Of a DNA stretch of 64,000 nucleotides, positions 40,261-60,979 are shown one piece after another. The first letter of the stretch is position 1. Every line of letters starts with the position of its first letter. The notes beneath the pieces are model-generated. The model saw only the letters and a list, made by a program, of their open reading frames with translations. It was not told the DNA's origin and did not search any database. The translations under genes and the position numbers were made by a program. Source of the DNA: an uncultured Thermoleophilia bacterium (GTDB lineage: Bacteria; Actinomycetota; Thermoleophilia; Gaiellales; Gaiellaceae); the NCBI GenBank assembly GCA_963716435.1, contig OY970312.1, forward strand, positions 985,576 through 1,049,575, written 5' to 3'.

Positions 40261-40364
40261 TCGCTCGGAACTCTGCCCGGGCCGCCGGATGGAGCTGGAT
40301 CGGGCGCGCATGTGCCTCGATCCGATAGCCAGCAATGTGCCCCTCTCGTACGATGCTTCGGGCC

Positions 40365-43328
40365 ATGCCTGACGTAGTCATCGAGAACCCGATTCTGAAC
40401 TCGCCGTTTCGCGAGCCTGCGCGGCACTGGCGCTTCGGGGACACAGGGATCACGAACGAGATCGTCGAAGGGCGCCGGCTGAGCTCGTACTTCATGCCGA
40501 TCCCGGCCTCGAAGGTTCGCGGTAAGCAGCTCGAGCTCGAGACGCAGTGGACGCGCGATCGGATCGAGGAGAACCGGCTGATCAACCAGATCCGTGAGCG
40601 TGTCACCGACTGGCGCAACCTCAACTGGCCCGGTGTGACGCCGACCACCCGGCGCCTGCTCGAGTACTGGACGGACGAGACCCGGGAGCGGCCGTTGTTC
40701 TTCTGCCAGGTCGAGGCGCTCGAGACGGCGATCTATCTGACCGAGTGTGCGACCAAGCAGGGGGACGCGTGGATCGAAAATGAGCTGCGCAGGCTGGCCG
40801 ACGACCAAAACCCTGGGCTCTACCGGGTGGCTTTCAAGATGGCGACTGGAAGTGGCAAGACGGTCGTGATGGCGATGCTGATCGCCTGGCAGACGCTGAA
40901 CAAGCAGGCCAATCCGCAGGATGCGCGGTTCTCCGACGCCTTCCTCGTCGTCGACGCCCGGGATCACGATCCGTGATCGGCTCCGCGTCCTGTTGCCTGA
41001 GGATCCCGAGAACTACTACCGAGCGCGCGATATCGCCCCGAGCGCCGACATCGAGCGCTTGCGCCAGGCCCGGATCGTCATCACGAACTTCCACGCCTTC
41101 CAGCTGCGCGAGGCGCAGGTCGCGTCGAAGACGACGAAGGAGCTGCTCACGCGCGGAGGCGAGAACCCGTTCGTGGAAACGCCGGATCAGATGGTGCGCC
41201 GGGTCTGCCGCGGCCTCGGCACGAAACGACAGATCCTCGTCTTCAACGACGAGGCGCACCACTGCTACATGCACCGCGTGGGCGGCGAGGAGGAAGCGCT
41301 CAAGGGAGATGAACGCAAAGAGGCGGAGCAGCGCGACCGCGAGGCGCGGGTCTGGGCGACCGGCCTTCAGGCGGTCACTCGCAAGCTCGGCGTCAAGGTC
41401 GTGTACGACCTCTCCGCTACGCCGTTCTTCCTGCGCGGCTCCGGGCTGGCCCGAGGGAACGCTTTTCGGCTGGGTCGTCAGCGACTTCTCGTTGATCGAC
41501 GCGATCGAGGCGGGGATCGTGAAGATCCCGCGCGTCCCTGTCGCCGACGACGTTGTGGACAAGGCGGGACCGACCTTTCGGAACCTGTGGCCCAAGATTC
41601 GGAACGAGCTTCCGAAGAAGCGAGTGAAGGACGCGTCCGCCCGAGCCGCCGCGACTCCCTGCCGAGTTGGAGGCGGCGCTGCACGCGCTGTACGGCAACT
41701 ACGAAAAGTCGTACCAGGATTGGGAGAAGCGCGAGCAGGCCGCGCGGCGCGGCACCACGCCGCCCGTCTTCATCGTCGTGTGCAACAACACGAGCGTCTC
41801 CAAGCTCGTCTACGACTACGTCGCTGGTTGGGAGAAGCAGCTCGACGACGGAAGTCGGGTCGTCGTGCCGGGCGAGCTGCCGCTTCTCTCGAACGAGGAA
41901 GGCGGAGCGTTCATCCATCGCCCGCGGACGATCTTGATCGACTCGCGGCAGCTCGAGTCGGGGGAGGGGATGAGCGCGGACTTCAAGGCGATCGCGGCCG
42001 GCGAGATCGAGGAGTTCAAGCGCGACTACCGCACCCGCTATCCCGGCCGTGACGCCGACGCGCTCACCGACGAGGATCTGTTGCGGGAGGTAATGAACAC
42101 GGTCGGCAAGCCCGGCAAGCTCGGCGAGCACGTGCGGTGCGTCGTCTCCGTCTCGATGCTCACCGAGGGCTGGGACGCGAACACTGTCACCCACATCCTG
42201 GGCGTCCGCGCCTTCGGGACGCAGCTCCTTTGCGAGCAGGTCGTCGGCCGAGGTCTACGACGGACGAGCTACGTGCCCAACGACGATGGACTCTTGACGC
42301 CTGAGTACGCAGAGGTCTACGGCGTGCCGTTCAGCTTCATTCCGACATCAGGCTCGGCAACGGATCCGCGACCGGCGCCGGTCATGACTCGGGTGCGCGC
42401 GCTGCCGGAGCGGGCGGCATGCGAGATTCGCTTCCCCCACATCGTCGGTTACCGCTACGAGCTCGACGGTGAGCGGATTGGCTGGAGCTTCGGCGAGGAG
42501 CATCGGCTCGTGCTCTCGACGCAGGACGTCCCTACGGAGACCGAGGTGGCCGGAATCATCGGCGAGCACGACATTCACGACCTCGAAGGGCTGAAGGCGC
42601 GCCGAGAGCAGGAGATCGCGTATGCACTTGCCCGCGAGCTCGGCGCCCGGTACTTCTCGGACCGTCCGTGGCTTTTCCCTCAGCTCGTAGAAGCGACGCG
42701 CGATTGGATGCAGACTTCCCTGACCCTGCACGATCGCGTCTTCCCGCAGCTGCTCCTCCTTCACGAGAAAGCGAGTGAGGCGGTCGAGCGGATCGTGCGT
42801 GGGATCCTGTCCGCCGATCGGAGCGCGCCTCGGCTCATCGCGATCCCCGACGCAGCCGATCCCGAGGGCTCGACGGCGGAGATCGACTTCGACACGTCCA
42901 AGCCCGTCATGGTCACGGACCCGGAGAAATGTCACGTCGAGTACGTCACGGGCGACTCGAACTGGGAGCACGTCCTCGCTAGTCGGCTCGAAGGCATGCC
43001 CGAGGTGCGCGCCTACGTGAAGAACCAAGGGCTTGGTTTCACGATTCGGTACACATTCGACGCAGAGTCGCGCGCATACGTCCCCGACTTCATCGTCAAA
43101 GTTGATGACGGACACGACGACGACCTCCTCAACCTCGTGATCGAGGTCACCGGACAGGCGCGCCCCGACAAGGTCGAGCGCGTTGCGACTGCCCGGGAAC
43201 AGTGGGTTCCCGGCGTGAACGCCCTCGGCCGGTTTGGCCGCTGGGACTTCATCGAGATCACCGATCCCTGGAATGCAGAGAACGCAATTCGCACCCACCT
43301 CTCCTCGCATGAGGAGCTCGCTGCGTGA
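40365..43328 (+). pseudogene. res: Type III-like restriction enzyme Res subunit (SF2 helicase), 3 frameshifts
   Basis: N-terminal VIENPILNSPFREPARHW. Walker A MATGSGKT. DEAH box FNDEAHHC. Motif VSMLTEGWDANTVTHILGVRAF ... QVVGRGLRR. The reading frame moves 0>1>2>0 near 40955, 41445 and 41650. Confidence 0.8.
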
Positions 43329-46020
43329 GCCCGCGGAAGCGAGCAACCAAGTCGGGGCCGACGCCGGTCGAGCCGATCCGTCACAAGGACAAACGATCCA
43401 ACATCCCCACGAACGAGCTGCGCGCCATGCTCGCCGACGACGAGCGCACGCCGAAGGCGATGCTGTACCCGCGTGACCCGAGCCTCGACCCGCAGCTCGT
43501 CTGGAAGGGCAAGGACGAGCAGGACGCGGCCGACCTCGAGGTGCCGGCCGTCCCGATCTACATCCAGGAGAAGATCCACCCGCGGGTGCTCATCGAGAAC
43601 CTGCGCCAGACGGCGGCCGCCGGCGAGCCGGAGCCCGAGCTGACGCTCTTCGACGACTTCAACGGCATCGCCGTTCGAGGAACTCGTCGACTTCTACCAG
43701 CACGAGCAGAACTGGTCGAACCGGATGATCCTCGGCGACTCGCTGCTCGTGATGACGAGCCTCGCCGAGAAGGAAGGCCTCAAGGGCAAGGTCCAGACGA
43801 TCTACATCGACCCGCCGTACGGCATCAAGTTCGGCTCGAACTGGCAGGTCTCGACCCGCAAGCGCGACGTCACGGACGGCAAGGCTCAGGACGTCACCCG
43901 CCAGCCCGAGCAGGTCCGGGCGTTCCGCGACACCTGGGAGCTCGGCATCCACTCCTATCTGACGTACCTGCGCGATCGGCTGGTCGTCGCGCGCGACTGC
44001 TCACCGAGACGGGCTCGATCTTCGTCCAGATCGGCGACGAGAACGTCCACCTCGTCCGCTGCGCTGCTCGACGAGGTATTCGGAGCCGAGAACTTCGTCT
44101 CGCCTGATCACGTTCAGGAAGACAGCTGGCGCAACGGGCGAGTCTCTCGCAGGCACGGCCGACTATCTCCTCTGGTATCGCGAAGGATCGTCGAACGTGA
44201 AGTACCGCGCGCTCTATCGACCCAAGGAGGTCGGCGGAGACGGTGCCGATGCGTACGACCTGCTTCGACTTGGCCGATGGGTCGACGCGTCGTATCACCC
44301 GCGACGAGCGTCGAGATGTCGCTCGACTTCCGCCCGGGTCGCGTCCGTTCCGAATCGAGCCCTCTGACAAGTCAGAGCGTCGGGCGCCAGAAGGGCGAAG
44401 GCGCGGCTTCATGGTTCGCCGTGCCGTTCGACGGGCGCGAGTTTCGACCGACCATGCAGGAGCGGTGGAAGACGAACGAAGCGGGTATGGCGCGGCTCGC
44501 AGTCAGCCGAACGAATCGGCCGTAGCCGGGAACACCCTTCGGTACATCCGGTACATCGACGACTTCCCAGCGTCCCCACTCACAAACATCTGGGACGACA
44601 CAGGAGTAGCGGGCTTCGGTGAGCGCAAGATCTACGTCGTTCAAACCAATCCGAAGGTCGTCGAGCGCTGCCTCCTCATGACGTACTGACCCTGGCGATC
44701 TCGTGCTCGACCCGACGTGTGGCACCGGCACGACGGCGCTACGTCGCGGAGCAGTGGGGTCGGCGCTGGATCACGATCGACACCTGCCGCGTCGCGCTCG
44801 CGCTCGCGCGCACGCGCCTGATGGCGCAAGTACCCGTACTACCTGCTCGCCGACTCGTCCGAGGGCTCCGAAGGAGGCCGAGCTGACCGGCAGATGCCGT
44901 CGACCAGCCGACGGCGACGTTCGCAGGGCTTCGTCTACAAGCGCGTGCCGCACGTGACGCTGAAGTCGATCGCGCAGAACCCGGACATCCACGAGGGCAT
45001 GAGCCGCGAGGAGATCGACGCGGCGATCGCTCGGCACGCCGAGACCGGAGACGCTGTTCGACCAGCCGTACGAGGACCGCAAGAAGGTGCGCGTCACGGG
45101 CCGTTCACGGTCGAGAGCCTGTCGCCTCACCGGACGCTCGACGGCCGAGGACCGCCGCGCCCGCGGACGTTGCGGAGTCGGCGAGCAGCGCTTCGTCACC
45201 GACGATCCTCGACAACCTTCGCAAGGCCGGCGTCCAGAACACCGTGAAGGACGAGCACCTCGACTTCGACTGGCTCGATCCGTACCCCGGCGCCTGGGTC
45301 CAGGGCGTGGCGCGTTCACCGACGCGGACGGCGCGGAGCAGGACGGTCGCCGTCAGCATCGGTCCGGAGTACGGCACCGTCGGATGCCGACCAGGTGCGC
45401 GAGGCCGCGAAGGAGGCGAGCAAGGGCGCGGGCGCCGACCTGCTGCTCGTGTGCGGCTTCGCCTTCGACGCGAACGCGGGTGAGATCGCGCAGGAGTTCC
45501 AGCCGATCGATGGTTCGGGCTGGGCGGTCGCCGCGGGCGAGCGCAAGCTCGGCAAACTCCAGGTCCTGCTTGCGCGCATGAACCCCGACCTCGCGATGGG
45601 CGACGAGCTTCTGAAGAAGACCGGCGCCGGCAATCTGTTCATGGTCTTCGGCGAGCCCGACGTCGAGATCCGCCGGCCGGAGGACGGCCATCGTTCAGGT
45701 CGAGATCCGCGGCGTCGACGTCTACGACCCGACCACGGGCCAGGTCCGCTCGAGCATCGACCGACGACATCGCCTGCTGGTTCATCGACACCGAACTACA
45801 ACGGCGAGAGCTTCTTCGTCCGCCACGCGTACTTCACCGGCGCCGACGACCCGTACGACACAGCTCCGCAGAGCCCTGCGCGCCGACATCGACGAGGCGG
45901 CCTGGGCGACGCTCTACACGACGGTGAGCCGCCCGTTCCCGGCCGCCCGAGACCGGCAAGATCGCGGTGAAGGTCATCAACCACTACGGCGACGAGGTGA
46001 TGAAGGTCTTCACCGTGTAG
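43325..46020 (+). pseudogene. mod: Site-specific DNA methyltransferase (Mod-like, DPPY motif), at least 8 frameshifts
   Basis: GTG start overlaps the res stop (GTGA). Recognisable pieces lie in different frames: [83 protein letters not shown] and the C-terminal KIAVKVINHYGDEVMKVF. Confidence 0.8.
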
Positions 46021-46179
46021 CTACACCAGGCACCGGTGGGCGTCCGACTGGATCACCCCCAGGAGGTCGACGGTTCGAGTTCGGCTAGCTCCATCGCCCC
46101 GCTGCGCGGGCATGCCGTCTTCCGCGGTGTCCTTCGCCGCGAGCCGGTGAGCCGCGCCCCGTCGCGCGGTCGCGGCGGC

Positions 46180-47584
46180 GTGACGCGACATGCAAGACTT
46201 GACCCGTTCACTCGCGTGTCGTTCCAGCCGAGCCCGTTTCAGCTTGTCGCCGAAGAGCGGCTCCTGAACGAACCGATCTACAGGAAGGCGCGCGACAAGA
46301 TCGTCGAGTTCATCACGCAGTTGCAGGCGGCGCGGAAGCCGCAGGACTATGTCGGGCTGCACCGCAGCGCGCTGGCGCACCTCATCGCTTACCAAGAGGC
46401 CGCTGACGAGGCCATCGCGCAGCGGATGGAGATCCGCCGCCGGATCCGGGAACTCGCGCGCGAGGAACCGAAGCCGATCGAGGCCATTCAGGAGCAGCAG
46501 GCGCTGCTCGACCGCGTCGTCAACCAGGAGGCGACCCTGAAGGCCGTACACCATCTAGTCCGCGCCGTCGGCGATGGCATCGCCTGGCGAGCGCTGCGCT
46601 ACGACCGCCGCGCCTTCACGGTGCTCGGCAAGGGCGAACGCGTTGGTCGTTTGGCCTCAGGTATCGGTCGCGACGCCGAGCTGACGGCGCTCGCCAACCT
46701 CTGGGAGGAGGAGGGGCAGTTCGCAATCCACAACGACATGACCAACTGTCTGCGTCATGGCGACCTGACCGCCATTCGAGAAGCCGGCAGTCAGGTCGAA
46801 GTGACGATCTACGAAGTCAAGGCGGGGACGTCTCACGACGAGGCGCAGCTGCGACGGCTCGACAGGGCGACCGAGCTACTGCGAACGCACCTCGACCCGA
46901 CCGGCGGCAGCGACGGCGGCATGCTGCGAGTGACGTCGGTACCGGCGCGCTACGAGACGTTCTCATCTGCGCTACCCGGTCTGATTCAGCGGGCCAAGGC
47001 GGTGGGATTCGATTGGATCCTCCCGCACCCGTGCCTACTCGTCGGCGCCGTCGATTACCGCGTGTGGGGCCGCGGCGACGTTGATGACTTCACTGAGCGC
47101 TTCGCGAAGATGCGGGCCGAGGTTGGCTGGCCAGGAGAGGAACCCGAGATCCTCGACTGGATGTCCTCGCTGCGGCGCATGCGCGACCGCCACCACAGCT
47201 TCAGCTCGCTGGCTCCCTTTGCGATCTTCCCGCTCGCGCCCGAGGATGTCGCCGATGTCATCTCGGGGTCGATCGATCTCTTCTTCTCGCTTCACCTGCC
47301 GCGGCTCGAGCAGGCCTCGAGCCGGGATGGTGTCAGCGTCCGAGTTGCCCGCCCCCCTGGATCGTCGACGCTCTTCCTTGAAGCCAGCCGCGGCGGACGC
47401 GGTGTGACCGTGCCGCCACACTTGCGCGAGCAGATGATGACCGAGCTTCGTCACGCCCGATTGCATCTTCGCTGCCATCGACGAGATCCTGAAGCTGAAC
47501 GAGGCGAACCCGGGCGAGGCATACGACAGCCGCATCGTTGTCTTCGCCGACGAGCGGCAAGTGTGGGAGGTCGAGAACACGTAG
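46180..47584 (+). CDS. PD-(D/E)xK-like hypothetical protein, one frameshift near the 3' end
   Basis: AIHNDMTNCLRHGDLTAI ... VEVTIYEVKAG fits a D...ExK nuclease core (D at about 46762, EVK at about 46813-46821). Near 47445 the sensible reading switches frame (...MMTE / VTPDCIFAAIDEILKLNEANPGEAYDSRIVVFADERQVWEVENT*). The start is uncertain (GTG 46180 or 46216). Confidence 0.5.
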
Positions 47585-47716
47585 GGAGCGGGCCGCTTCG
47601 GCCACGCAGCGGACCGCAAACCGCCTGGCCGCGCTAGCAAGAAAACCTCGAGCCCCTTCTAAAGGAAACGTGATCGCGATCGACGCCCCATCTGAAGCTA
47701 CTGCTTCAATCAGATC

Positions 47717-48751
47717 GTGAGCTGGCAAGACCGCCTTCCCGATGGACTCTCCGACATCGAAGCGACCGAGGAGGGGTTTCAGGCGAGCCTTTCGCTTCCG
47801 GTCGACGGCGACGGCTTCTTCGGCCGCGAGTGCCGCGCCTGTGAGCAGCCGTTCAAGATGAACGCCGACGAGTGGGAGGCGCTCCCCGACGACCCACGAG
47901 TCACGTGCCCGTACTGCGGCGAGCAGCCCGAAGATGCCAACGACTTTATGACACCGGATCAGCAAGAGCGGGTCGGGGCCGCGATCAACGCGCTGGCCGA
48001 GCAATACGTGCACGGGGCGTTCACGGACACGCTCTGGCAGTCGTTCGGCTCGCGGCCACGCCGAACGGGTGGCGGCATGTTCGGCATCGAGATCAGCGTC
48101 GCTACCGGAGCGCCGCCCCCAATCAGGGTGCTGCCCGAATACGTCGAGGAGAAGGTGCGACGAACGATCACCTGCAGCAACTGCTCAACGACTTACGCTG
48201 TCTACGGGGCGAGCGCCTTCTGCCCAGTCTGCGGCCCGCGCGCAGCGCTTGCGACCGTCATCGAGGCGATCGAGGCAGCACGCACCGCCCTTGGCCTGGA
48301 GGATCTCCTCCCCGAGGACGCGCGTGAGCAGGCGCGTGCCGCAGGTGTCTTCGGCAACGTCGCCGCCGACACGATCAAGCGCGTCGTCACCCTCTTCGAG
48401 GTCTTCGCCCGGAACCAGCTCGAGGAGCGAGTATCGACTCACGTCGACCCGCTGCGGAAGGCGGGACGCGGCGTGTTCCAGCGGCTGGACGATGCTGACG
48501 ATCTCTTCGATCAGCATGCGGGACTGCGGCTCTCCGCACTGGTCAACAGCAAGACGTGGGCGCGCCTGCTCGTGACATTCCAACAGCGGCACGTGCTCGT
48601 TCACCGCCAGGGGCTGATCGACGACCAGTACCTCCAGCGCGTGCCCGCGGCTCGCCAACGAGTCGGGCAGGCTCTCGTCGTGACGCGCAAAGAGGCGGAG
48701 CAGGCGCTCGACGATCTCGAACGGCTCGTGCACGCACTCGCCTCGACGTAG
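47717..48751 (+). CDS. Double zinc-ribbon protein with a C-terminal HEPN-like domain
   Basis: CRACEQ...CPYCG and CSNCS...CPVCG ribbons. The C-terminal helical domain ends in FQQRHVLVHRQG, which matches the HEPN Rx4-6H motif (nt 48587-48604). Confidence 0.6.
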   Translation: MSWQDRLPDGLSDIEATEEGFQASLSLPVDGDGFFGRECRACEQPFKMNADEWEALPDDPRVTCPYCGEQPEDANDFMTPDQQERVGAAINALAEQYVHGAFTDTLWQSFGSRPRRTGGGMFGIEISVATGAPPPIRVLPEYVEEKVRRTITCSNCSTTYAVYGASAFCPVCGPRAALATVIEAIEAARTALGLEDLLPEDAREQARAAGVFGNVAADTIKRVVTLFEVFARNQLEERVSTHVDPLRKAGRGVFQRLDDADDLFDQHAGLRLSALVNSKTWARLLVTFQQRHVLVHRQGLIDDQYLQRVPAARQRVGQALVVTRKEAEQALDDLERLVHALAST

Positions 48752-48764
48752 CGATGCTGGCTGC

Positions 48765-49562
48765 GTGATTTGCGAAACGACATCAGGAGGCGACATCCGG
48801 CCGGAGATCGTGTCTGCGTTCGAGCCGCAGTTCGCCGCCTGCGACGCTCTGTACGAGTTCGCCCGCTCGCACCGACCCAGCCGGTCTGCGGCATCCGTGC
48901 CTGCGGACCGTCTGATCGTCGCGACGTATGCCCGCGGCTCGAAGACCTACCAGGGTGTACTGCGGCTCGCCTACGTCGGTTACGGCGCCCAGGCGTTCAT
49001 GCTCGGCCGCTCGCTGTACGAGGACATGCTTGTCGCACACTGGATCAAGCTCAATCCTGAGCAGGCGCCTCGGCAGCTCAACGACCATCGCCGCATGACC
49101 ATTGCCGCCTACCAGGGGGAGCTGAGCAGATTCGGGCTGGATGCGCCAAACGAGGAGCCGATCAACCGGGCGGAACGCGACCGGCTACGTCAGGAGTTTG
49201 GCTCTGGACCTTGGACGAAGCTGAGCATGGACAAGCTGCGGCGCGCAGTCGAGTCGGAGTTTCCGGAGCTGGAAGGCCACCGGCGGCTCCTGCTCCAGGT
49301 CGACGCACTCTTGCACCGTCACGCGAACCTCATTGTCCACCACTCGTTCTTGAGCTTGGGCGGTGCCGTGGCAAACGCGAGCGAGGATGGCATTACCTAC
49401 GACGTCGGCGTCTCGACGCGTTTCATCCCGCAGGCGCTCTTCATCGCCTTCTTCAGCTACATCCATCTGACGAGCCTGGTCGTACACGGCAGCGCGCGGG
49501 AAGAGCTCGCGCAGCTGTGGCACGAGCATCGCGACGCATTCACGGTGACACGAGCCGCCTAG
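48765..49562 (+). CDS. DUF5677/AbiV-like helical protein
   Basis: Starts 13 nt after the HEPN gene stop. All-helical, with the motif GRSLYEDMLVAHWI reminiscent of DUF5677/AbiV-family proteins. Assignment by eye. Confidence 0.45.
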   Translation: MICETTSGGDIRPEIVSAFEPQFAACDALYEFARSHRPSRSAASVPADRLIVATYARGSKTYQGVLRLAYVGYGAQAFMLGRSLYEDMLVAHWIKLNPEQAPRQLNDHRRMTIAAYQGELSRFGLDAPNEEPINRAERDRLRQEFGSGPWTKLSMDKLRRAVESEFPELEGHRRLLLQVDALLHRHANLIVHHSFLSLGGAVANASEDGITYDVGVSTRFIPQALFIAFFSYIHLTSLVVHGSAREELAQLWHEHRDAFTVTRAA

Positions 49563-50091: not shown

Positions 50092-53000
50092 TCAATCAGT
50101 GACTTTCGTGGCCGGCGCTTCCACGCCGTGCGAGGGGAACCGCACCTCCAGAGCCGACCGGCGGCCCGTGATCCCGGCAAGCGTCACAGACGTGCTCGGC
50201 TTGAACTCGAGCGTTCGGAGCGGATTCGGAAAGATCTTCACCACCGTGTCGTAGCCTTCCTCGAGGCCGGCAACGACAGCGAGAAAGAACTTGTCCCCCT
50301 CCAAAAACGCGCGCTCGGCCTCGTTCGCCGTGAGGGTGATGTCGTCCGGTAGTGGCCCATAGGTGGCCTTGAGTTCGAAGTAGCGGCGAAGCTTGTCGAG
50401 CGCGTCTGCGCCGACGCCGCGCAGATGACGATAGTCGCGCAGCCCGGCGGAGTCGCCGTTGATTGCGAGCTGCAGCACTTGGAGGGCGAGATCCTCCCTC
50501 TCCTCATCGGAGTAGGCCAATGGCGCGGTCCGGGGTGCCGGCCTCGAGCCAGCGATCGGCTTGCCCGCTGGAACGTCGTCCCTTAGGCCGCGCCGACGGC
50601 TCTTCTTGCCCTCGGCCCCGTTGCTGCCATCAGTCACGCCTACGACTTTCTCGCTGAGATCCTCGATCTGCTTCAGCCGTCTCGCCGGGAGCAAGCGCTC
50701 CGTGGTCGCGCCAGCTCTCGTCGTCACGAGATCCCGCTCGGTCTTCGCGCGCTTCTCGACCGGCGTCGAGCTCTTTGCTTGCTCGAACAAGGACGTGAGG
50801 GCTTCTCCGTCGGCGCTGTCCTGGACGAGCGTAACCGCTCCCCTCTCCCCCTTCGCCGCCCTATCCCATGAACGGCTCCACGCAAGTGCGAGCTTGTCCC
50901 GATCCCCCTCAGTAAAGAGGGCGGCGATCACCCGGCCGCCGGCGTCGTCTTCACCGGCCGCCTCCGCGTCAGCGAAGTAGAACGTGAGCGGCGTTCGCGT
51001 CAAGTGGGCGCGGGCGGGAACGGACACTGGCGCTCGACGGTTCAGCCGAAGCTCAATCTGCAGGTGCGGATCGAGCGCGATTCGGGCGCGTGCAAGTTCC
51101 TCCCAAGGCGTCGAACACGCTTCGAAGAGCTTTGGATCGTGTCTCGTCAGCCAGTCGCGCAAGAGTTCGACGGCTGCACCGAACCGTCGCTCTAGGGTTG
51201 CGCCACCGACGAACGCTTGCTCGTGAACGACGGCGTCGAAGTCGCCCTCCGTAAGGAGCAAGGCAGCGGCGGCGCCGATCAAACGGGGCACTGCCGGCGG
51301 TGCGACGGAAAGCCTCCAAACCGCAAGGCGAGACGACAGCGCATTCCCGACGTCCTCATCCGCTATGACATAGATAGGGCGATCGGTCTGCCACCCGACG
51401 CCGGTCCGAAGGGGAAGATTCCGCAAGCGAGCCAGCTCCCGGCTCGAGGCCTCCGCAACATGCGCCTCAAGGTAGAGGTAGACGTTGACGAGGATCTGCT
51501 CGTCCTCCTCATCGGGGGTTCCTCGAGCGATCTCAGCCAGTACATCGATGCAATCGCTGACGGAGGGCGGAACGATTCGTAGGGCGCGCCAAAGCCGCTC
51601 GGCCGCGGAGCGCTCCGAGACGAACGGTCGGCGACCGCCGAAGATCGGCGCGCCGAGGAAGACTGCGGAAGGTGGCAGCCAGCGGCCGTTCGCGTAGACC
51701 AGGCCGGGCTTAGTACGGTGGGTGCCGAAGCGGGCCCGGAGTTTCCGCATCGGCAAGTCACCGACCATGTCGTCGGGCGACGGCTCCCTCTTCTTGCAGG
51801 CCGCAGCAATGGCCGCGTACCGCAGCATCAGCATCCGTTCATCAAGCGGGCCGCCGTGGTCACGCAGGGTCGCGAGCTGCTCGACCATCTCGCTCACCTG
51901 AGGGTCGGTCTCGATTCGGAGCGCTCGCACGGCCGGCGAGGGAGCGTCTCCCTCATCGAGTTCGTATGCGAAGGAACTCCGGTCGTCGCCGAGGATCGCC
52001 TCGGTCGCCGGCGTCCGTACCGCCAGGTCGCGCGGCGCCTTCTTCTTGCCGTCCTCGCTTGTGAGCCAGGGCTCGTCCATGGCCTCGGCAAGCCAGGACG
52101 CCGGGATCGTTCCTGCGCGGTGCCAACTCCCGTACGACCAGACGGCGTCCGCCTGGGTGTGCGGCGCATACAGACGGTCCCACTCCCGCTCAAGCGTCGA
52201 CAGCAGAGCGCGAGCCCGCTCGCGGCGGGCGCGCAGCCCGCGTTCGCGCTGTAGATCCTTGAGCGCCGCGTGCAGGTCGGGCGAAAGTCGGTCTCCTTTG
52301 AGATGAGTGGCGTGGCGCTCCAATCCCCGGAGCGCCTCGATCTGGGGCCGCGCGAGCAGGTGCGGCTCGATCGGGCTCGCCGGATCGCCGTAGCGCGTCT
52401 CCACGCGGCTCGGCGCGACAAGCCTTGGCGCCGCCTCGGCACCGAGGAGGCCGAAGAACGCGCGAGCCGCGAGCGGCCTCGGAGCGCCGGAACCGGCCCG
52501 CCGCCTGCCCGGTCGACGAAGGACATCTTCGTAGCGAGGATGTATCCAACCCAGCCCCGGCGCCCGACCGGCTGCCTTGCTCCACCCATCTCGACGATCC
52601 TCGATCGACGCCGGCAAGTAAGAGTCCGCGGGACGTCCCACGCGCGTAACGCGCTTCGAGCCATCCCAACCCTGGACGTCGACCGCGATCACCCGGCCGA
52701 CCGCTGACCCGAACTCCTGCTGTATGCGCTGGTCGAGCGCGGCGAATGCGTCGCGCATGAGGCGAAGCTCGTCGTCATCGATGCGAAGCGGTTCGTCTTC
52801 GTCGTCACGCGAGGCGAGCGCTCGGAGCGTGCTCTCAGGATCAGGAGCGTCCCTGAGCATTTCGTTCTGCTCGAGCCATTGCCTGACTACGACCGCATCG
52901 GTCCAGCGAGAGAGGTAGACGGGATCGATTACGTGTGCCAGCCCGATGCGGGCAGCGAGCGAGTCGTCGTGAGCCGAGCGAAGGAGCAGTTCGCCCTCGA

Positions 53001-54747
53001 CGTCGGCCATCGGCGGGACGATTCGATTGCCATTGGCCGCGACCACCGATCGCAGCGACCAGAGGGTGTTGCCGAGGTCGGCCTCGATCGCCGCGCGGGC
53101 AAGCTTGATGAACCAGCGTACGTCGCGCGGGCCAAGGTCGTCGTCTTCCCAGTCGAGGAGCCTAAGGCTCTCCTCGACGTCGACCAAGCTTGCCCCTCCG
53201 ATCTCGCCGAGGATCCTCCGCCAGCGCCCCTCGGGATCTCGCGCGGACCGCGGAAGCAGCGTCAGACCCGGTCGAAGGCCGCCGATTTCCTTCTGCGTTA
53301 GAAGTCCATCTACCGCCTCTGCCTCGTACGCGAGGGTCCGCAGCCGCCGTTCCTCTCCAGTGATGCTGATCCGGAAGCTGCGGCGTACGCGTGCTTGTAC
53401 CGACCCGACGAGTTCGGCTATGCGGTCCGCGACCCATGCATCGGCGGAGAAGGCTTGCTCCGCCCGCTGCGGGATAGCTCTCCATGCTGTCGCGGGGTTG
53501 TTTGCAAGCCGCTCGAGCGCGACAGATGCGGTCAGCTCCGCGAGGCGCTCGAACAGCCACGCATTCAGGGGCTCATGTTGAATCCCGCGCCGAGCGACGT
53601 CGATATCGAACTGCGCGTTGACGCTGAGCGGAAGCTGAGTTCCCACGCCCAACGGCAGCCCTGCGTAGATCTGGCCTGGATCGCTCTGAGCGGGCACGGC
53701 GACGGCGATCGGCGTCGTGTCCTCTCGCGCCTTGTACCGGCGGTGAAGGCTCGGCGGCATCCTCCGCTCGATCTCGTACCGCTGCCAGGAGCGACTGCTT
53801 CGTGGCGCGCGGAGTGTCGTGCGTCGACATGACTCCTTGATTCCGGGCAGAGTGAGCGTTTCGGTCGTGACCTCGGCGAGCCGGTGATTGATCAGGGCCT
53901 TCCGACGCCCGATCGAGACGAGCCGAAGAGAACGCACTGTGTCTAGAAAGACCAGTGACTCGGAGCCGAGCGAGGCGAACCAGGTCTGGAATTCGTCGGC
54001 ATCGAAACCCTCCCGCAACCGAAGTTCGAGCAGCGTCTCGGTCGAAGCCGAGTTGTAGAAAGCAGGAATCGACCGCGCACGCTGCGCGGGTCGCACGTGG
54101 TTCCCGGTGATCGCGAAGTCATAGGGCGCACAGTGAACGGTGAGGCTGTCGCCGAGGCGCCCAAGGGTCTTTAGCCCGATCCCGAAGCGGCCTTTTGCAC
54201 GGGGGTCGTCACGCTTTGTTGAGACGAAGGCGAGGGTCATCGCGATCACGTGATGCAGATGCACCCGCTCTCCGTTGTGGGCGATCAAGAGTCGGCCATG
54301 CTTCCCTGATCTCCGGATCGCGACCCGAACCTCAGACGCATGCAAGTCATCGGCGTTCTGGACGATCTCGATGAGCCCGTGGAACGACTCGACATTGAGC
54401 TGCTCCGCGCTCATCTGCGCGCCCTCCAGAACCTCGCGCAGCACCCCCGGAGCCCCGAGCTGAAGTTGCTCAAGTTCGCCGAGCGCCGCGTGAGCGAACG
54501 CCGGAGTCAGAGGGTCGTGGACTTCGCCTGCGCGAAGTCCGAGTCGCCAGAGACTCTGAGCCGCTTCACGACCTAGCTCGGCTTCCGGCCCTGTTTCTGC
54601 CCCGTGGTCCGTCGCGTCGTTCAAGGTCACCCCGATAGAAGACTCCGCCTCTAGTCTCGCACCCGCTCGATTCCGAGCAAAGGCTCCGGAACGCAGACAC
54701 AGGTTCACCCTTCGGGTGGGGAGGCAGGCCACCGGCCGCTTTCGCAT
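50092..54747 (-). CDS. Giant sacsin-like GHKL (HATPase) protein with a C-terminal DUF3883 (PD-(D/E)xK-like) domain
   Basis: Uninterrupted 4656-nt ORF. N-box LIEIVQNADD (nt about 54346-54369). G-box KGRFGIGLKT. Sacsin-repeat-like YAGLPLGVGTQLPLSVNAQFDIDVARRGIQHEPLNAW. C-terminal GVGADALDKLRRYFELKATYGPLPDDITLTANEAERAFLEGDKFFLAVV fits DUF3883. The true start may be GTG 54630. Confidence 0.8.
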   Translation of the reverse strand: MRKRPVACLPTRRVNLCLRSGAFARNRAGARLEAESSIGVTLNDATDHGAETGPEAELGREAAQSLWRLGLRAGEVHDPLTPAFAHAALGELEQLQLGAPGVLREVLEGAQMSAEQLNVESFHGLIEIVQNADDLHASEVRVAIRRSGKHGRLLIAHNGERVHLHHVIAMTLAFVSTKRDDPRAKGRFGIGLKTLGRLGDSLTVHCAPYDFAITGNHVRPAQRARSIPAFYNSASTETLLELRLREGFDADEFQTWFASLGSESLVFLDTVRSLRLVSIGRRKALINHRLAEVTTETLTLPGIKESCRRTTLRAPRSSRSWQRYEIERRMPPSLHRRYKAREDTTPIAVAVPAQSDPGQIYAGLPLGVGTQLPLSVNAQFDIDVARRGIQHEPLNAWLFERLAELTASVALERLANNPATAWRAIPQRAEQAFSADAWVADRIAELVGSVQARVRRSFRISITGEERRLRTLAYEAEAVDGLLTQKEIGGLRPGLTLLPRSARDPEGRWRRILGEIGGASLVDVEESLRLLDWEDDDLGPRDVRWFIKLARAAIEADLGNTLWSLRSVVAANGNRIVPPMADVEGELLLRSAHDDSLAARIGLAHVIDPVYLSRWTDAVVVRQWLEQNEMLRDAPDPESTLRALASRDDEDEPLRIDDDELRLMRDAFAALDQRIQQEFGSAVGRVIAVDVQGWDGSKRVTRVGRPADSYLPASIEDRRDGWSKAAGRAPGLGWIHPRYEDVLRRPGRRRAGSGAPRPLAARAFFGLLGAEAAPRLVAPSRVETRYGDPASPIEPHLLARPQIEALRGLERHATHLKGDRLSPDLHAALKDLQRERGLRARRERARALLSTLEREWDRLYAPHTQADAVWSYGSWHRAGTIPASWLAEAMDEPWLTSEDGKKKAPRDLAVRTPATEAILGDDRSSFAYELDEGDAPSPAVRALRIETDPQVSEMVEQLATLRDHGGPLDERMLMLRYAAIAAACKKREPSPDDMVGDLPMRKLRARFGTHRTKPGLVYANGRWLPPSAVFLGAPIFGGRRPFVSERSAAERLWRALRIVPPSVSDCIDVLAEIARGTPDEEDEQILVNVYLYLEAHVAEASSRELARLRNLPLRTGVGWQTDRPIYVIADEDVGNALSSRLAVWRLSVAPPAVPRLIGAAAALLLTEGDFDAVVHEQAFVGGATLERRFGAAVELLRDWLTRHDPKLFEACSTPWEELARARIALDPHLQIELRLNRRAPVSVPARAHLTRTPLTFYFADAEAAGEDDAGGRVIAALFTEGDRDKLALAWSRSWDRAAKGERGAVTLVQDSADGEALTSLFEQAKSSTPVEKRAKTERDLVTTRAGATTERLLPARRLKQIEDLSEKVVGVTDGSNGAEGKKSRRRGLRDDVPAGKPIAGSRPAPRTAPLAYSDEEREDLALQVLQLAINGDSAGLRDYRHLRGVGADALDKLRRYFELKATYGPLPDDITLTANEAERAFLEGDKFFLAVVAGLEEGYDTVVKIFPNPLRTLEFKPSTSVTLAGITGRRSALEVRFPSHGVEAPATKVTD

Positions 54748-54786: not shown

Positions 54787-55053
54787 ATGGAGTACCGGAT
54801 CGACCGCGAGGCGCTTGCCGAGTTCATCGCTGGGCAGGTCGAGCTCGTCGAGGCGACCTCGATCCCGCATCTGCTCGCCGACGTGGTCGAGCTTCGCCTG
54901 CGGCACGAGAGCGTCAGCCGCGACGAGGTGCGGGCGCTCTGGCTCGGCGCGGGTCTCGCGACCCATGTCGGGCTCGCGATCTTCGAGGAGCCCGAGCGCT
55001 TCGTCACCACCGCCGACCCTTCGCCCGCTCCACCGGCGGCGATCGCCGCCTGA
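54787..55053 (+). CDS. Small hypothetical protein (first gene of the transfer module)
   Basis: 88 aa. Strong RBS AAGGAGGAGG directly upstream of ATG 54787. No family recognised. Confidence 0.55.
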   Translation: MEYRIDREALAEFIAGQVELVEATSIPHLLADVVELRLRHESVSRDEVRALWLGAGLATHVGLAIFEEPERFVTTADPSPAPPAAIAA

Positions 55054-55072: not shown

Positions 55073-56125
55073 ATGCAGACCATCGAACAGCCCGTCCACC
55101 GGATCGAGGACGCGACCGCGCCGCTCTGGTTCGGCTCGCGGCCCGGCCGGATGGGGCGACGTCGTGCGCGCCGTCGAGCCCGGACGCAGGCGCACAGCGC
55201 GGCGGCGATGATCGACGCCGCCGGGCTGGACTGGACGGTCGAGCAGCACCCGCTCGAGGCCGTCGTCGAGCGCGAGTACCAGTCGCTCCGCGTGCCGGTG
55301 CCGCGCGCACGTCGCGAACGTCCGCAGCGACACGCGCGCCGTGCTCGGCGTCGTCGGCGAGGGCTACGAGCCGCTGCAGAACCGCGCCGCGTTCGCCTTC
55401 TGCGACGCGATCACCGACTCGGGGCGAGGCGCACTGGCTCGGCGCGGGCGCGACGCGCGGCGGCGCGCGCGTGCACGCGCTGATGCGGCTCGACCGCGAG
55501 ATCCGGATCGGCGGACGCGGAGGGGGAGGACGTGCTCCCGCTGCTCTGCTTCCGCAACGGCCACGACGGCGGCCTCGCCGTCACGGTCTCGCGTCGCGCC
55601 GTTCCGGCTCGCGTGCCTGAACGGGATGCTGCTCCCGCTCGACGGAGCGCGCAGCGCACCTGGAAGGCGCGCCACACGGCGAACGTGGAGGCGAAGCTCG
55701 CCGACGCGCGCCGCACGCTCGGGATCGCCTGGCGCTACTACGACGAGTTGGAGGAGGTCGGCGGGCGGCTGATCCGCGAGCGCGATGGGCGCGGCCGAGT
55801 TCGAGCGCTTCCTCGCCCGGCTCGTGCCGCTGCCCGAGCCGCGGCCCGATCGCGACGAACGGCGGGCGCGCCGTGCGCAACGTCGAGCGCGTGCGCGAGG
55901 CGATCCGCACCGCCTACCGGGCGACGCCCGACCTCGACGAACATCCGCGGCACCCGCTGGGGCGCGCTGCAGGCCGTCACGGCCTACGTCGACCACGTCG
56001 CAGCCGACCCGCGCGACCGCCGGCCGCACGCACGCCGGAGGCGCGCTTCGAGCGCGCGACCGAGCCGCAGCCGCTCAAGGACCGCGCGCTCGCAGCTACT
56101 GACCGAAGGAGGGACGCAGCCATGA
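55073..56125 (+). pseudogene. DUF932-family (phage/plasmid-like) protein, at least 5 frameshifts
   Basis: Pieces lie in different frames: AAMIDAAGLDWTVEQHPLEAV, VLGVVGEGYEPLQNRAAFAFCDAITDSG, DVLPLLCFRNGHDGGLAVTVS, APFRLACLNGML and RGTRWGALQAVTAYVDHV. Confidence 0.75.
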
Positions 56126-57953
56126 CCGCCACGCTGAGCATGGTTCCGCTGGCGAAGATCCGCCCGAGCGAGGACAACCCGCGCAGCGAGTTCGACGACG
56201 AGCAGATGGCCGAGCTGGTCGAGTCGGTGAAGCGGCACGGGATCATCACGCCGCTGACGCTCGCGCCGCGACGGCGAGGGCGGCTTCGCGATCATCGCCG
56301 GCGAGCGCCGCTACCGCGCGGCGAAGGCCGCGAAGCTCCGCGAGGTGCCCGCCCAGGTGCGCGAGGCCGACGGCGACGCGCTCACGCTCGCGGTCGCCGA
56401 GAACGTGATCCGCGCCGACCTCAGCCCGGTCGAGGAGGCGCGCGCGTACCGGCGGCTCGTCGACGAGCACGGCGACGCGGCGAAGGTGGCGAGGCTCGTC
56501 GGCAAGAGCGAGCGGCTGATCGCGCGAGCGGCTCGACCTCCTGCGCCTCCCCGACGAGGCGCAGGAGCTGCTCGCCGGCGCGCAGGGTGCCGCTCGCCTG
56601 CGCGCCGGCGCTCGTCCAGATCGCGGAGCGCGAGCCGCTGCTCGCCGACCTCGACGGCGGCATGGCTCGCGGAGCGCCCGCACGACGCCGCGCGCTTCCC
56701 GGCCGACCCGGGCGAGGTCGTCGGACGACGTGCTCGCGCGCCGAGTGGCACGACGACGAGGGCGAGCCGCTGCACCCGGTCGCCTACAGCGTCGGCGGCT
56801 ACTACGGGCCGATCCTCCCGCGCGGCCGCGCACGCGAGGACGCAGCTCGCCGGCCGTGCTCGCGAAGCTCGGCGCGCACGCGGAGGCGGTCGCGGCCGCG
56901 CTCGCGGCGCTGCCCGAGATCGCGCACGCGTCCGAGTACGACTGGCAGGCGCGGCGAGGCCGAGGAGGAGCGCGCAGCGCGACTGCTTCGCGCTCGACGA
57001 CGACGACGCCGACGCCGCGCGCGCGTTCGGCTGCCTGCTCGAACTGCCCGGCCGCGAACGGACGCGGCGATCACCGCTACGTCACCGATCCCGAGTGGCT
57101 CGCGGATCGGCTCGTGCAGAAGATCGCCGCCCACGCGAGCGGCGAGGCCGAGCGCGAGCACGCCGGGAGCGCGAGCGAACGCGCTGCCGAGCCGCCGCGG
57201 ACGACGCCGAGAAGGAGGCCCGCCGCCAGGAGCGCGAGCGCCACTACGAGGAGCGCGTCTCCGCCCGGGCGCGCAACCTCGACCTCGGCGCGGCGCTCGC
57301 GCGGTGGCAGCCGAAGCTCGACACCGACGCGGTGAAGCTGCTCGGCTCGCTCGTCCTGACTCCACTACGGGAAGGCGGCGGCGTGGGCGCACCGGCTCTG
57401 CGTCGAGCAGCCGACGACGACGAACAAGCAGGGCAAGGTGACCGTCCGCTACCCGCGCGGCGCGCAGGCCGAGAAGCAGCAGCACGAGGCAGGCGCTCGC
57501 CGCGCTCAAGCGCGCCCGGACGCCCGAGGCCGCGCTCGCGGTCGTCCTGCGCCTGCTCGTCGCGCAGCGGCTCGCCGACACGGCCGGGCTGCCGAACGCC
57601 GACCGGCAAGGCATCTACGAGCCGCAGGAGCTGGCCGACTCGCCGCGTGCTCGACAAGCTCGCCCGCGCGTCGCGCCGCCCTCGGTCAAGCAGCACCTCG
57701 CCGAGCAGGAGGCCGAGCGCGAGCGGCGCGAGCAGGCCTGCCGAGCGAGCAGGCCGCGCGGCTCAGCGAGCAGCGCGCGAAGCTCGCCGCAGGCGAGCCG
57801 TCCGCTGCGAGTGCTGCCTCGCCCGATCGAGAGCCGAGCAAGCCGCCGAGAAGCACGGCGCGCTCGTCCACGCCGGCGACTGCGAGCGCAGTGGGGCAGC
57901 GCCTCGACGACGACGAGCGAGACCGCATGATGCACCGTCCGCCCGACTACTAA
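56122..57953 (+). pseudogene. ParB/Srx-like nuclease-domain protein, at least 4 frameshifts
   Basis: ATG overlaps the DUF932 stop (ATGA). LSMVPLAKIRPSEDNPRSEFDDEQMAELVESVKRHGIITPL, then in another frame FAIIAGERRYRAAKAAKLREVPAQVRE ... ENVIRADLSPVEEARAY. Later pieces lie in further frames. Confidence 0.75.
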
Positions 57954-58018: not shown

Positions 58019-60979
58019 GTGCTGAGCGTCGCGAAGCTGACGCCGGGCCAGGAGGGCTACTACGAGCGCTCCGTCGCCGCGGGGCTCGACGACTACTACG
58101 CGGGCCGCGGCGAGTCGCCCGGCGTCTGGACCGGCCGCGGCGCCGCCGCGCTCGAGCTCGAGGGCGTCGTCGAGGAGGGCGAGCTCGGCGCGGCTGATCC
58201 GCGGCGACCACCCGCAGACCGGCGAGCGAGCTGCGGCGCCGGCACCCGAAGGCGCGGACGATCACGATCGAGCGGATCGACCCGCTCGACCGGCGAGCGG
58301 CGCCTCGAGGACGAAGACGCTCGCGCCGGTCGCCGGCTTCGACCTCGTCTTCTCGCCGCCGAAGAGCGTCAGCCTGCTGCACGCGCTCGGCGACGAGGAG
58401 ACCCGCCGCGCCGTCAACGAGGCGCACCTGGCCGCCTGGCAGGCGGCGCTCGCCTACCTCGAGGACGAGGCCTGCGTCGTCCGCCGCGGCACGCAACGGC
58501 GTCGCGCGCGAGCACGCCGCCGGGCTTCGTCGCGGCCGCCTACCAGCACCGCACCAGTCGCGGGCGCAGGACCCGCACCTGCACACGCACGTGATCGTCG
58601 CGAACATGGCCCGCCGCCCGAGCGACGGCAAGTGGCGCGCGCTCGACGGCGAGGCGATCCTCAAGACGCTACCGGCTCGCCGCCGGCTACCTCTACCAGG
58701 CGCACCTGCGCGCCGAGCTCTCCCGCTCGCTCGGCGTCGAGTGGGAGACGCCGCGCAAGGGCATGGCCGAGCTCGAGCGACGTGCCGCGCGGCGGTGATC
58801 GCGCGAGTTCTCGACGCCGGCGCGCGCAGGTCGTCGAGCACATGAACGAGCACGGCGACCGGCGGGCTTCTACGCCGCCCAGGTCGCCGCCCTCGAGACC
58901 CGCGAGCGCAAGGAGCACGTCGACCTCGCCGCGCTGCGCGAGGACTGGCGCGCCCGCGCCGCCGAGCACGGCCTCGGCGAGCGCGAGCTCGACGCGCCGT
59001 GCTCGGCCGCGTCGCCAGCCGCGAGCTCGACGTCGCGACGAGCTGCTCGAGATCGCCGCGCGGCTGCTCGGCCCCGACGGGCTGACCGAGAAGCAGCACG
59101 GCGTTCTCCGACCCCGACGCTCGTGATGGCCTGGGCCAGGCGCACGCCCAGGGCGCGCCCGGCCGAGCGCGTCCGCCGGCTCGCCGCCCGGCTCACTCGG
59201 CACCGACGGCGTCGAGCCGGTCGGCGAGGCGCCGCAGCCCGGGCCGGCCGGCCCGCTACTCGACCGCGCGAGCTGATCGCCGCCGAGCGCGCCGCGCTCG
59301 CGCTCGTCGAGCGCGGCCGCGACGCCGACGCGCCGTCGATCCGCGACGCGAGCGCGTCGCCGAGATCGAGCGCGCCGACCGATCGCGCTCTCCGCCGAGC
59401 AGGAGGCGATGCTGCGCGCGGTCGCCACGAGCCCGGACCGCGTCGTCTGCGTCGTCGGCCTCGCCGGCGCCGGCAAGACGACCGCCACCCGCGCCGTCGC
59501 CGAGCGTCTTCGCGCAGGCCGGCATCCCGGTGCTCGGCGCCGCGCCCTCCGGCGTCGCCGCCGAGAAGCTCCAGGACGAGACCGGCATCCCGTCGACCAC
59601 GCTCCACCGGCTGCTCGACGACGCGCGCGCCGGACGGGCTGCCTCCGGCTCGTGCTCGTCGTCGACGAGGCCGGGCATGGCCGAGACGCGCATCCTCGCG
59701 CCCGTGCTCGAGCTGGTCGAGCAGGCGGGCGGCAAGGCGATCCTGATCGGCGACCCGCACCAGCTCCCCGCCGTCGGCGCCGGCGGCCTCTTCGCCGGCA
59801 TCGTCGAGCGCCACGGCGCCGTCGAGCTGACCGAGAACCGCCGCCAGCACGACGAGCTCGAGCGCGACGCGCTCGCGCGCGTCCGCGCCGGCGTCGGCCG
59901 CGACTACCTCGCCTACGCCGAGAAGCGCGAGCGGCTCGTCGTCTCCGAGAGCCCCGTCACGACGCGAGACGCGCCTGCTCGCCGACTGGTGGGAGCACGC
60001 CCGCGACGACCTCCCCGGCAACGTCATGATCGCGCTCCGCCGCCGCGACGTCGCCGAGCTCAACGCGCTCGCCCGCGCGCTCATGGACACCGACGGCCGC
60101 CTCGGCCAGCGAGCGCCTCACCGTCGCGGACGCGCGAGTTCGCCGCCGGCGACCGCGTCGTCTGCCTCCGCAACTCCGACGCGCCTCGGCGTCAAGAACG
60201 GCACCCGCGGCACCGTCGAACACGTCGACCGCGAGCAGCGCACGCTCACCGTCGCGACCGACCGCGGCGACCGACGTCGAGCTCAGCCGCCCGCTACCTC
60301 GAGGCCGGCAACGTCCGCCACGCCTACGCGCTCACCGGCCACGCCGCCCAGGGCCTCACCGTCGAGCGCGCCTTCGTCCTCGGCGCCGGCGAGGCACGCC
60401 TGCAGGAGTGGGGCTACGTCGCCCTCTCCCGCGCCCGCACCGAGACCCGCCTCTACGTCACCGGCGACGCCGCGCGAGCACGAGAGCCACTTCCACGACC
60501 TCGACGACCGCGACCCGCTCACCCGCCTCGGCCGGCACTCGAGGAGTCGGCGATCGAGCGAGCTCGCCGTCGACCAGCGCCCGCTCCCGTCCGGGCCGCG
60601 GCACGACGCGCGTGCCGAGATCGAGCGCACGCGACTCAACGAGCTCGACCGAACGCGGCTCAGGCTGCTCGAGCAGCAGCGGCTCGCGATGCTGAAGGTA
60701 CGAGATTCCGCCGAACGGAAACTGGGCGAAGCCGAAGTGAAGCTCCACCGGCTTCCGCGACTCGTCCGCGGCCGGCAGCGAGACAAGCTGCGTGCCGAGA
60801 TCGCCCGCGAGCGAAACGCAGTCTGGATCGCCGACAAGAAGCTCGCTCAACTCGCCCCCCATGCGGGCGTGGGCGTTTCCGCGAGCATCGAACTCGCCGG
60901 CAATGCCCGTCGTAGCGGATGCAGGCAGCAAGATCTACGGACTCTTCGCCGCGGGAACCATCTCGAGCCGGGCCTCTGA
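58019..60979 (+). pseudogene. MobF/TrwC-type conjugative relaxase with C-terminal RecD-like helicase, at least 6 frameshifts
   Basis: VLSVAKLTPGQEGYYERSVAAGLDDYYAG (TrwC N-terminus). FDLVFSPPKSVSLL. YQHRTSR..DPHLHTHVIVAN. Walker A GLAGAGKTT. VVDEAGMA. LIGDPHQLPAVGAGG. HAYALTGHAAQGLTVE. These are scattered over all three frames. Confidence 0.8.

Follow-up and report, generated by a model that had tools for sequence, protein, structure and literature searches.

A tmtA gene of the Tiamat family, encoding predicted ATPase and nuclease modules, beside decayed mobile-element genes in an uncultured Thermoleophilia bacterium

We examined a long open reading frame (ORF) in a 64,000-nucleotide stretch of contig OY970312.1 from an uncultured Thermoleophilia bacterium (assembly GCA_963716435.1, positions 985,576 to 1,049,575), referred to below as the window. 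The ORF lies on the minus strand at 50092..54747 and comprises 1551 codons plus a stop, free of internal stops; the long intact frame reported in the initial annotation of the window is thus real and uninterrupted. Judged by sequence, the gene is a member of the Tiamat family, a kind already catalogued and named in 2022, and we refer to it as tmtA. Its product combines an Hsp90/sacsin-like GHKL ATPase, a large central body, a flexible linker and a DUF3883 nuclease-like domain, and the predicted catalytic residues of both the ATPase and the nuclease are intact in the translated sequence. We consider it probable that tmtA is the single component of a Tiamat-type defence directed against phages, or against mobile DNA, and that it was the cargo of an integrative mobilisable element that has since decayed.

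The family assignment comes from the PADLOC profile PDLC03968 ("TmtA"), which matched the protein near full length (1386 bits, E=0; residues 55-1535 of the protein against positions 9-1478 of the 1486 in the profile), while seven other PADLOC TmtA profiles matched more weakly, at the N-terminus. Since an existing subfamily profile recognises the protein end to end, we rate the gene as already known. TmtA is the sole gene of Tiamat, which was reported by Millman et al. in 2022 (bioRxiv 10.1101/2022.05.11.491447); their Table S2 gives its domains as "Hsp90, DUF3684, DUF3883", and records anti-phage defence as observed for the 1590-residue TmtA of B. cereus FORC_005 and as not observed for the 1429-residue TmtA of Enterobacter sp. 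ku-bf2 (SG164). The window protein groups with the Enterobacter protein, which typifies its subfamily and is 31% identical to it over 394 residues (E 3e-57), and not with the B. cereus protein, with which BLASTP aligned the N-terminal 340 residues at ~19% identity (E 5e-5). Profile-profile comparison (hhalign) of the window family with the B. cereus TmtA family, covering the N-terminal 399 residues of the latter, gave a probability of 98.6% and an E value of 1.4e-15 over 385 columns; a database search with the same 399 residues recovered only fragments of at most 680 amino acids. Therefore, the N-terminal modules of the two families are homologous, and by this comparison the verified B. cereus TmtA and the window protein share descent over their N-terminal ~400 residues. 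The window gene has in common with Tiamat as catalogued by PADLOC (PDLC03964-03972) and DefenseFinder its domain order, its size (~1430-1590 amino acids), its organization as a single gene and its occurrence in defence islands or on mobile elements. A single-gene defence system had been proposed in the initial annotation, and the full-length TmtA match and the location of homologues in mobile defence islands agree with that part of the proposal; the novelty it implied was overstated, because Tiamat had been named and shown to be protective in 2022. The accompanying statement that no mechanism has been described is accurate, as the searchable literature on Tiamat holds only catalogues and reviews, which list the mechanism as unknown, and one survey that merely records a PD-(D/E)xK domain.

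The translation start most likely lies downstream of the beginning of the maximal ORF. We place it at the GTG at 54630, which would give a protein of 1512 rather than 1551 residues, because gaps fill 87% of the first 50 ORF positions in homologues, with conservation beginning near residue 51, and because the 90% identical gene at locus L086 aligns with this GTG and has an in-frame TAG seven codons 5' of it. (Homologous loci, 87 in all, carry L-numbers; the first 80 were tested by tblastn and the later ones by gene calls.) DNA homology between L086 and the window covers 54669..50092. The NCBI gene model (P0001, 1440 amino acids) starts at M112 and thereby loses conserved residues. The relative itself (L086:200-4740) is annotated as a protein of 1464 amino acids that ends early, inside the DUF3883 domain, though the DNA homology runs to the expected stop; the contig is metagenomic, and a frameshift or faulty assembly probably accounts for the early end. 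A scan for promoters and terminators around tmtA returned nothing exceeding background.

The N-terminal part of the protein had been read in the initial annotation as a sacsin/Hsp90-type GHKL ATPase, and several comparisons agree. The NCBIfam model NF047352 (sacsin N-terminal ATP-binding-like) matched residues 123-204 above its cut-off, with an E value of 1.4e-16 that places the resemblance beyond chance, and the motifs that had been quoted are present at the places given, with the N-box and the G-box invariant in the family. The family profile also matched the structures of the sacsin Hsp90-like domain (5v44-5v47), which are the closest solved relatives by sequence. An AlphaFold model of residues 40-800 (mean predicted local distance difference test score (pLDDT) 90, predicted template modelling score (pTM) 0.81) was compared with the PDB by Foldseek, and the best matches were full-length Hsp90, TRAP1, Hsc82, Grp94 and HtpG (E ~1e-9, probability 1.0, 500-700 columns). 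Across the family, Pfam HATPase_c_3 was found at E<0.01 in 17 of 30 members and SACS in 4 of the same 30. The second, beta-rich domain contributes two invariant basic residues, K339 and R386, either of which might contact the gamma-phosphate of ATP.

Between the ATPase and the C-terminal domain, the initial annotation had described about 900 residues of unassigned helical sequence. This description does not hold: to about residue 700 the protein is Hsp90-like and mixed alpha/beta, and residues 1307-1400 form a low-confidence linker. The model of residues 700-1551 has a pLDDT of 84, and a search of the PDB with residues ~700-1300 yielded no match. Comparison of the protein profile with itself detected a weak internal repeat (residues ~916-1108 against 1033-1211, probability 70%) and no second GHKL/sacsin module. 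Residues 1307-1400 are modelled with low confidence and are the least conserved part of the protein, and they are therefore probably a flexible tether.

At the C-terminus, a DUF3883 domain of the PD-(D/E)xK type had been proposed, and this reading is supported by an invariant triad, by matches to Pfam NOV_C (DUF3883) at E<0.01 in 18 of 30 family members and by a restriction-enzyme-like fold. Foldseek placed the C-terminal model closest to DpnI (E 3.3e-3, probability 0.99), followed by PvuII, NhoI, the Eco15I N-terminal domain and Hjc. D1448, E1458 and K1460 make up the predicted PD-(D/E)xK triad, set on a restriction-endonuclease-like fold in the model.

At a threshold of E<=1e-5, a database search recovered 241 relatives, spread over Actinomycetota, Chloroflexota, Alpha-, Beta- and Gammaproteobacteria and further groups; the closest at species level were metagenome-assembled genomes of Gaiellaceae and Solirubrobacterales. 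Conservation was assessed in an alignment of 60 sequences of 31-90% identity, in which E127, N131, D134, H157, G159, G186, F188, G189, G191, K339, R386, D1448, E1458 and K1460 are invariant. The gene lies in a region where other genes have broken down, and we also weighed the possibility that tmtA is a non-functional relic not yet hit by a disabling mutation, as the frameshifted relaxase and frameshifted Type III restriction-modification (R-M) genes of the same region (see below), and the lack here of a 107-amino-acid ORF that follows tmtA in its two closest relatives, might suggest. However, the window protein keeps all 33 of the family-invariant residues, a frame of 4.5 kb has stayed open in DNA of 66% GC, and an identical protein is present in two independent sequencing runs. 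The ratio of nonsynonymous to synonymous substitution (dN/dS) is 0.21, 0.14 and 0.14 against relatives at 90%, 77% and 76% identity, respectively, and tmtA is therefore under purifying selection. We regard it as very unlikely that the gene is such a relic.

The surroundings of tmtA point to a mobile element. GC content is 0.66 in the stretch from 36 to 54.7 kb, compared with 0.72 for the rest of a window that is high in GC overall (0.70-0.75), and the third-position GC of tmtA (0.76) is under that of flanking native-looking genes. A decayed TrwC/MobF-type relaxase gene lies 3.4 kb upstream of tmtA. Since the intact relaxase of locus L087 matches the first 43 residues of this relaxase at 91% identity, the same type of mobilisable element as at L087 has decayed in the window. 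The initial annotation had placed tmtA amid decayed genes, and the broken relaxase and a broken Type III R-M system are indeed nearby; however, these lie 3-10 kb off and not a few hundred bases as stated there, and the immediate neighbours look intact. At L087, tmtA has a TrwC relaxase directly upstream and is accompanied by an integrase, Xis, NotI with a methylase, Vsr, Mrr and AbiV. Other homologues have an integrase with an excisionase, an N6/N4 methylase and SIR2 (one locus), PIN/PhD toxin-antitoxin genes (one locus), WYL, RES-Xre and an integrase (one locus), or a Type I R-M system (one locus), and ArdC, ParB and IS66 adjoin the homologue at L084. Homologues are thus found among integrases, R-M systems and toxin-antitoxin genes, in keeping with the defence-island neighbourhood that had been anticipated.

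Such contexts also raise the possibility that tmtA serves the mobile element and not anti-phage defence, by acting on competing plasmids or integrative and conjugative elements, or by stabilising the element as an addiction module does. The relaxase directly upstream of tmtA at L087, the decayed copy of the same relaxase in the window and the ArdC, ParB and IS66 genes at L084 would all suit this explanation, as would the failure of the nearest tested relative to defend against phages. However, protection against phages has been observed for one member of the wider family, and defence genes are commonly the cargo of such elements, so that the context does not discriminate between the two. Moreover, tmtA has remained intact while the relaxase has decayed, which argues for a benefit to the host and not for a role in element transfer. 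A function on behalf of the element therefore seems to us unlikely, and defence by a single gene carried as cargo remains the preferred explanation.

We also considered whether TmtA needs a partner. Eukaryotic sacsin pairs an Hsp90-like ATPase with a HEPN domain, and the initial annotation had suggested a HEPN-assisted system on the strength of a HEPN-like gene close to tmtA. That gene encodes two zinc ribbons and an Rx4H motif and matches the PADLOC profile PDC-M14A, the gene beside it encodes a DUF5677 protein, and both lie within 2.4 kb of tmtA. However, both genes run convergently with tmtA on the other strand, and so do not form one operon with it; tblastn searches of the first 80 homologous loci detected no counterpart of either gene or of any other window neighbour of tmtA. 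At the later loci, which include the relatives at 90%, 77% and 76% identity, gene calls show quite different neighbours, and the DNA homology to the closest relative ends exactly at the ends of tmtA, stopping on the downstream side at its stop codon. A multi-gene system of TmtA with either or both of these neighbours, echoing sacsin, is therefore extremely improbable, and the HEPN-assisted variant is not upheld; the pair may instead constitute a candidate defence module of its own that has no connection with tmtA. An all-against-all comparison of flanking ORFs gave the same picture, as the commonest flanking family is present at just 11 of 85 loci, with no fixed side or orientation. tmtA stands alone, without a conserved partner gene.

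GHKL proteins such as Hsp90, MutL and MORC use ATP to drive a dimerising or clamping conformational cycle. By analogy, the N-terminal domain of TmtA would probably power a similar cycle by binding and hydrolysing ATP, and the central body would probably recognise a cue of infection, for example a phage protein, the DNA of an invader or an intermediate of replication. The tethered DUF3883 domain, once licensed by this cycle, would nick or cut DNA, with the outcome that the invader is destroyed directly or the infected cell is aborted. Because the protein has no helicase or translocase domain, ATP would act as a switch and not as fuel for translocation. An effector role for the DUF3883 domain is supported by HmaA of the Hma system, whose DUF3883/NOV_C domain has been shown by experiment to be a nickase on which defence depends (PMC11232893). 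In HmaA, as in the window protein, this PD-(D/E)xK domain ends a large NTPase at its C-terminus, but the motor or switch of HmaA is an Snf2 helicase and that of the window protein a GHKL ATPase, and the two are without similarity outside the nuclease domain. A variant of the mechanism would make the Hsp90/sacsin-like module a sensor of clients and not a DNA clamp: its client, bound as a chaperone would bind it, would be a phage protein, perhaps an abundant structural protein in the course of assembly, and ATP-dependent closure on it would free the tethered DUF3883 nuclease. Although we think this improbable, it would make Tiamat a chaperone-derived protein sensor and would suggest an origin of sacsin-type ATPases in immunity.

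Several observations weigh against reading tmtA as a working Tiamat-type defence gene with these two activities. The nearest tested relative, the Enterobacter TmtA, showed no defence in the assay of Millman et al., and the verified defender from B. cereus is only a distant relative, ~19% identical in its N-terminal part. DUF3684, one of the domains listed for TmtA, was undetected by hmmscan in the window protein and in 30 relatives; Millman et al. probably obtained this label by a profile-profile method of greater sensitivity. The profile matches expected from the initial annotation were obtained only in part: NF047352 is above its cut-off, but HATPase_c_3 (residues 123-194, E 2.9e-3) and NOV_C (residues 1452-1496, E 1.2e-3) are below the Pfam gathering scores in the window protein, as is SACS. 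For the nuclease domain, even the best structural hit is a weak one. Residue 158, which by its motif position corresponds to the adenine-binding Asp of GHKL proteins, is Asn in the window protein and Asp in most homologues; the verified B. cereus TmtA reads N-N-G at the position of H157-N158-G159. Finally, every mechanistic step past the domain assignments is one that we infer.

The likenesses to better-known GHKL proteins are limited to particular domains. The Hsp90 family (Hsp90, TRAP1, Grp94, HtpG) and sacsin share with the window protein the Bergerat fold and the motifs E-x-x-x-N-A-x-D and G-x-F-G-x-G, and the structural match to Hsp90 spans the N-terminal and middle domains. However, identities are 10-13% and TM-scores 0.25-0.4, indicating that the domain arrangement of the window protein differs; the Hsp90 C-terminal dimerisation domain and MEEVD motif are absent from it, and it bears a nuclease domain, which the chaperones are without. 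Sacsin has UBL, DnaJ and HEPN domains and repeated SRR modules, whereas the window protein has one GHKL module only. Pfam/NCBIfam profile scans of the window protein gave no matches to DnaJ, UBL or HEPN, and its SACS score is 12.7 bits against a cut-off of 32.8. The window protein is thus not a sacsin orthologue and shares with sacsin the type of ATPase domain only. Prokaryotic MORC/paraMORC GHKL ATPases have been linked to restriction-modification (Iyer et al. 2008, PMC2292703). Like TmtA, these are GHKL ATPases proposed to act with a nuclease against foreign DNA, and a clamp-type mechanism is plausible by this comparison; however, their nuclease is a separate gene, and in Tiamat it is fused to the ATPase. 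The best structural matches of the window protein are of the Hsp90 type and not MutL or MORC, and the Pfam/NCBIfam scans gave no match to the MORC or S5 families.

The finding adds one Tiamat gene to the catalogue, which PADLOC or DefenseFinder would label as such in a standard run. Some interest remains. Tiamat has been reported to be enriched in Actinobacteria (PMC10482375), and the window gene is of the actinobacterial-type subfamily. In addition, the structural model offers targets for mutation (E127, N131, K339 and D1448/E1458/K1460), and the locus presents a putative defence gene kept intact under selection while the mobile element that carried it decays. Table 1 gives the features of tmtA and of its surroundings.

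Table 1. Positions of tmtA, its domains and motifs, and nearby or associated genes (window coordinates unless a locus is named)
Feature	Position	Strand	Remarks
Maximal open reading frame	50092..54747	-	1551 codons plus stop
Probable tmtA coding sequence	50092..54630	-	GTG start 54630; 1512 amino acids; stop 50092..50094
Three-helix N-terminal extension before the ATPase fold, residues 54-116	54400..54588	-	Conserved A85, A88, G109
Hsp90/sacsin-type GHKL (Bergerat) ATP-binding domain, residues ~117-280	53908..54399	-	NF047352, sacsin profile match, Foldseek, invariant residues
N-box EIVQNADD	54346..54369	-	E127, N131, D134 invariant
HNG motif	54271..54279	-	H157, G159 invariant
G-box GRFGIGLKT	54166..54192	-	G186, F188, G189, G191 invariant
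Second, beta-rich domain, residues ~281-425	53473..53907	-	Motif LPLSVNAQFDIDVARRG; homologous to the same region of the B. cereus Tiamat family
K339, second domain	53731..53733	-	Invariant
R386, second domain	53590..53592	-	Invariant
Central body, residues 426-1300	50848..53472	-	Up to ~700 in Hsp90-like structural match; rest confidently folded alpha/beta
Probable flexible linker, residues 1307-1400	50548..50829	-	Much of it pLDDT <50; least conserved part of the protein
C-terminal DUF3883/NOV_C PD-(D/E)xK nuclease-like domain, residues ~1405-1540	50128..50535	-	NOV_C, invariant D...ExK, Foldseek
D1448	50404..50406	-	Invariant; G-A-D1448
E1458	50374..50376	-	Invariant; F-E1458-L-K1460
K1460	50368..50370	-	Invariant
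TrwC/MobF-type relaxase, at least 4 frames	58019..60915	+	First 43 residues 91% identical to intact L087 relaxase
ParB_N protein, between relaxase and tmtA	55873..57441
Decayed Type III R-M system, overlapping frames	40335..44525	+	res pieces ResIII, REase_III, RE_endonuc; mod pieces MTase_III
HEPN-like gene, 344 amino acids, intact-looking	47717..48751	+	Two CxxC...CxxC zinc ribbons; C-terminal RHVLVH (Rx4H); PADLOC PDC-M14A E 1.5e-13
DUF5677 gene, 265 amino acids, intact-looking	48765..49562	+	RHANLIVHH
RNase_H_2/SF1-helicase examples	L083:14680-18027; L085:1848-5219; nine other loci		None in window

In the Type III mod gene, positions 78-147 and 165-291 of the MTase_III profile fall in different frames. 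On the same strand, a 533-amino-acid ORF at 46036..47637 is without a family match, and its C-terminal tail resembles an out-of-frame translation; near 47250 the phase of third-position GC changes to match the frame of another, short ORF (47081..47407), which suggests a frameshift.

The commonest neighbour among the homologous loci encodes a protein of ~1110 amino acids that combines RNase_H_2 with superfamily 1 (SF1) helicase domains (AAA_11/AAA_12/AAA_30). This gene lies no more than 10 kb from tmtA, frequently together with a WYL regulator, and may represent a further defence gene of the same islands. At the tmtA stop codon, an ORF of 107 amino acids abuts or overlaps the gene in L086 (4737-5060) and L087 (13731-14054); the two copies are 82% identical and have no Pfam match, and their position suggests translational coupling to tmtA in these two loci. 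We rejected this ORF as a conserved downstream partner, since the window and almost every other locus lack it. An ORF of 178 amino acids that overlaps the tmtA stop in the window was likewise discarded, its translation being Arg/Pro-rich junk. On the other side of the gene, an 88-amino-acid ORF (54787..55053, plus strand) is divergent from tmtA, and the upstream ATG in the maximal ORF of tmtA is 40 nucleotides away from it. This small ORF carries a strong AGGAGG ribosome-binding site and gave no family match; one independent assembly (Logan contig Qt5sov3X) includes it among the called genes.

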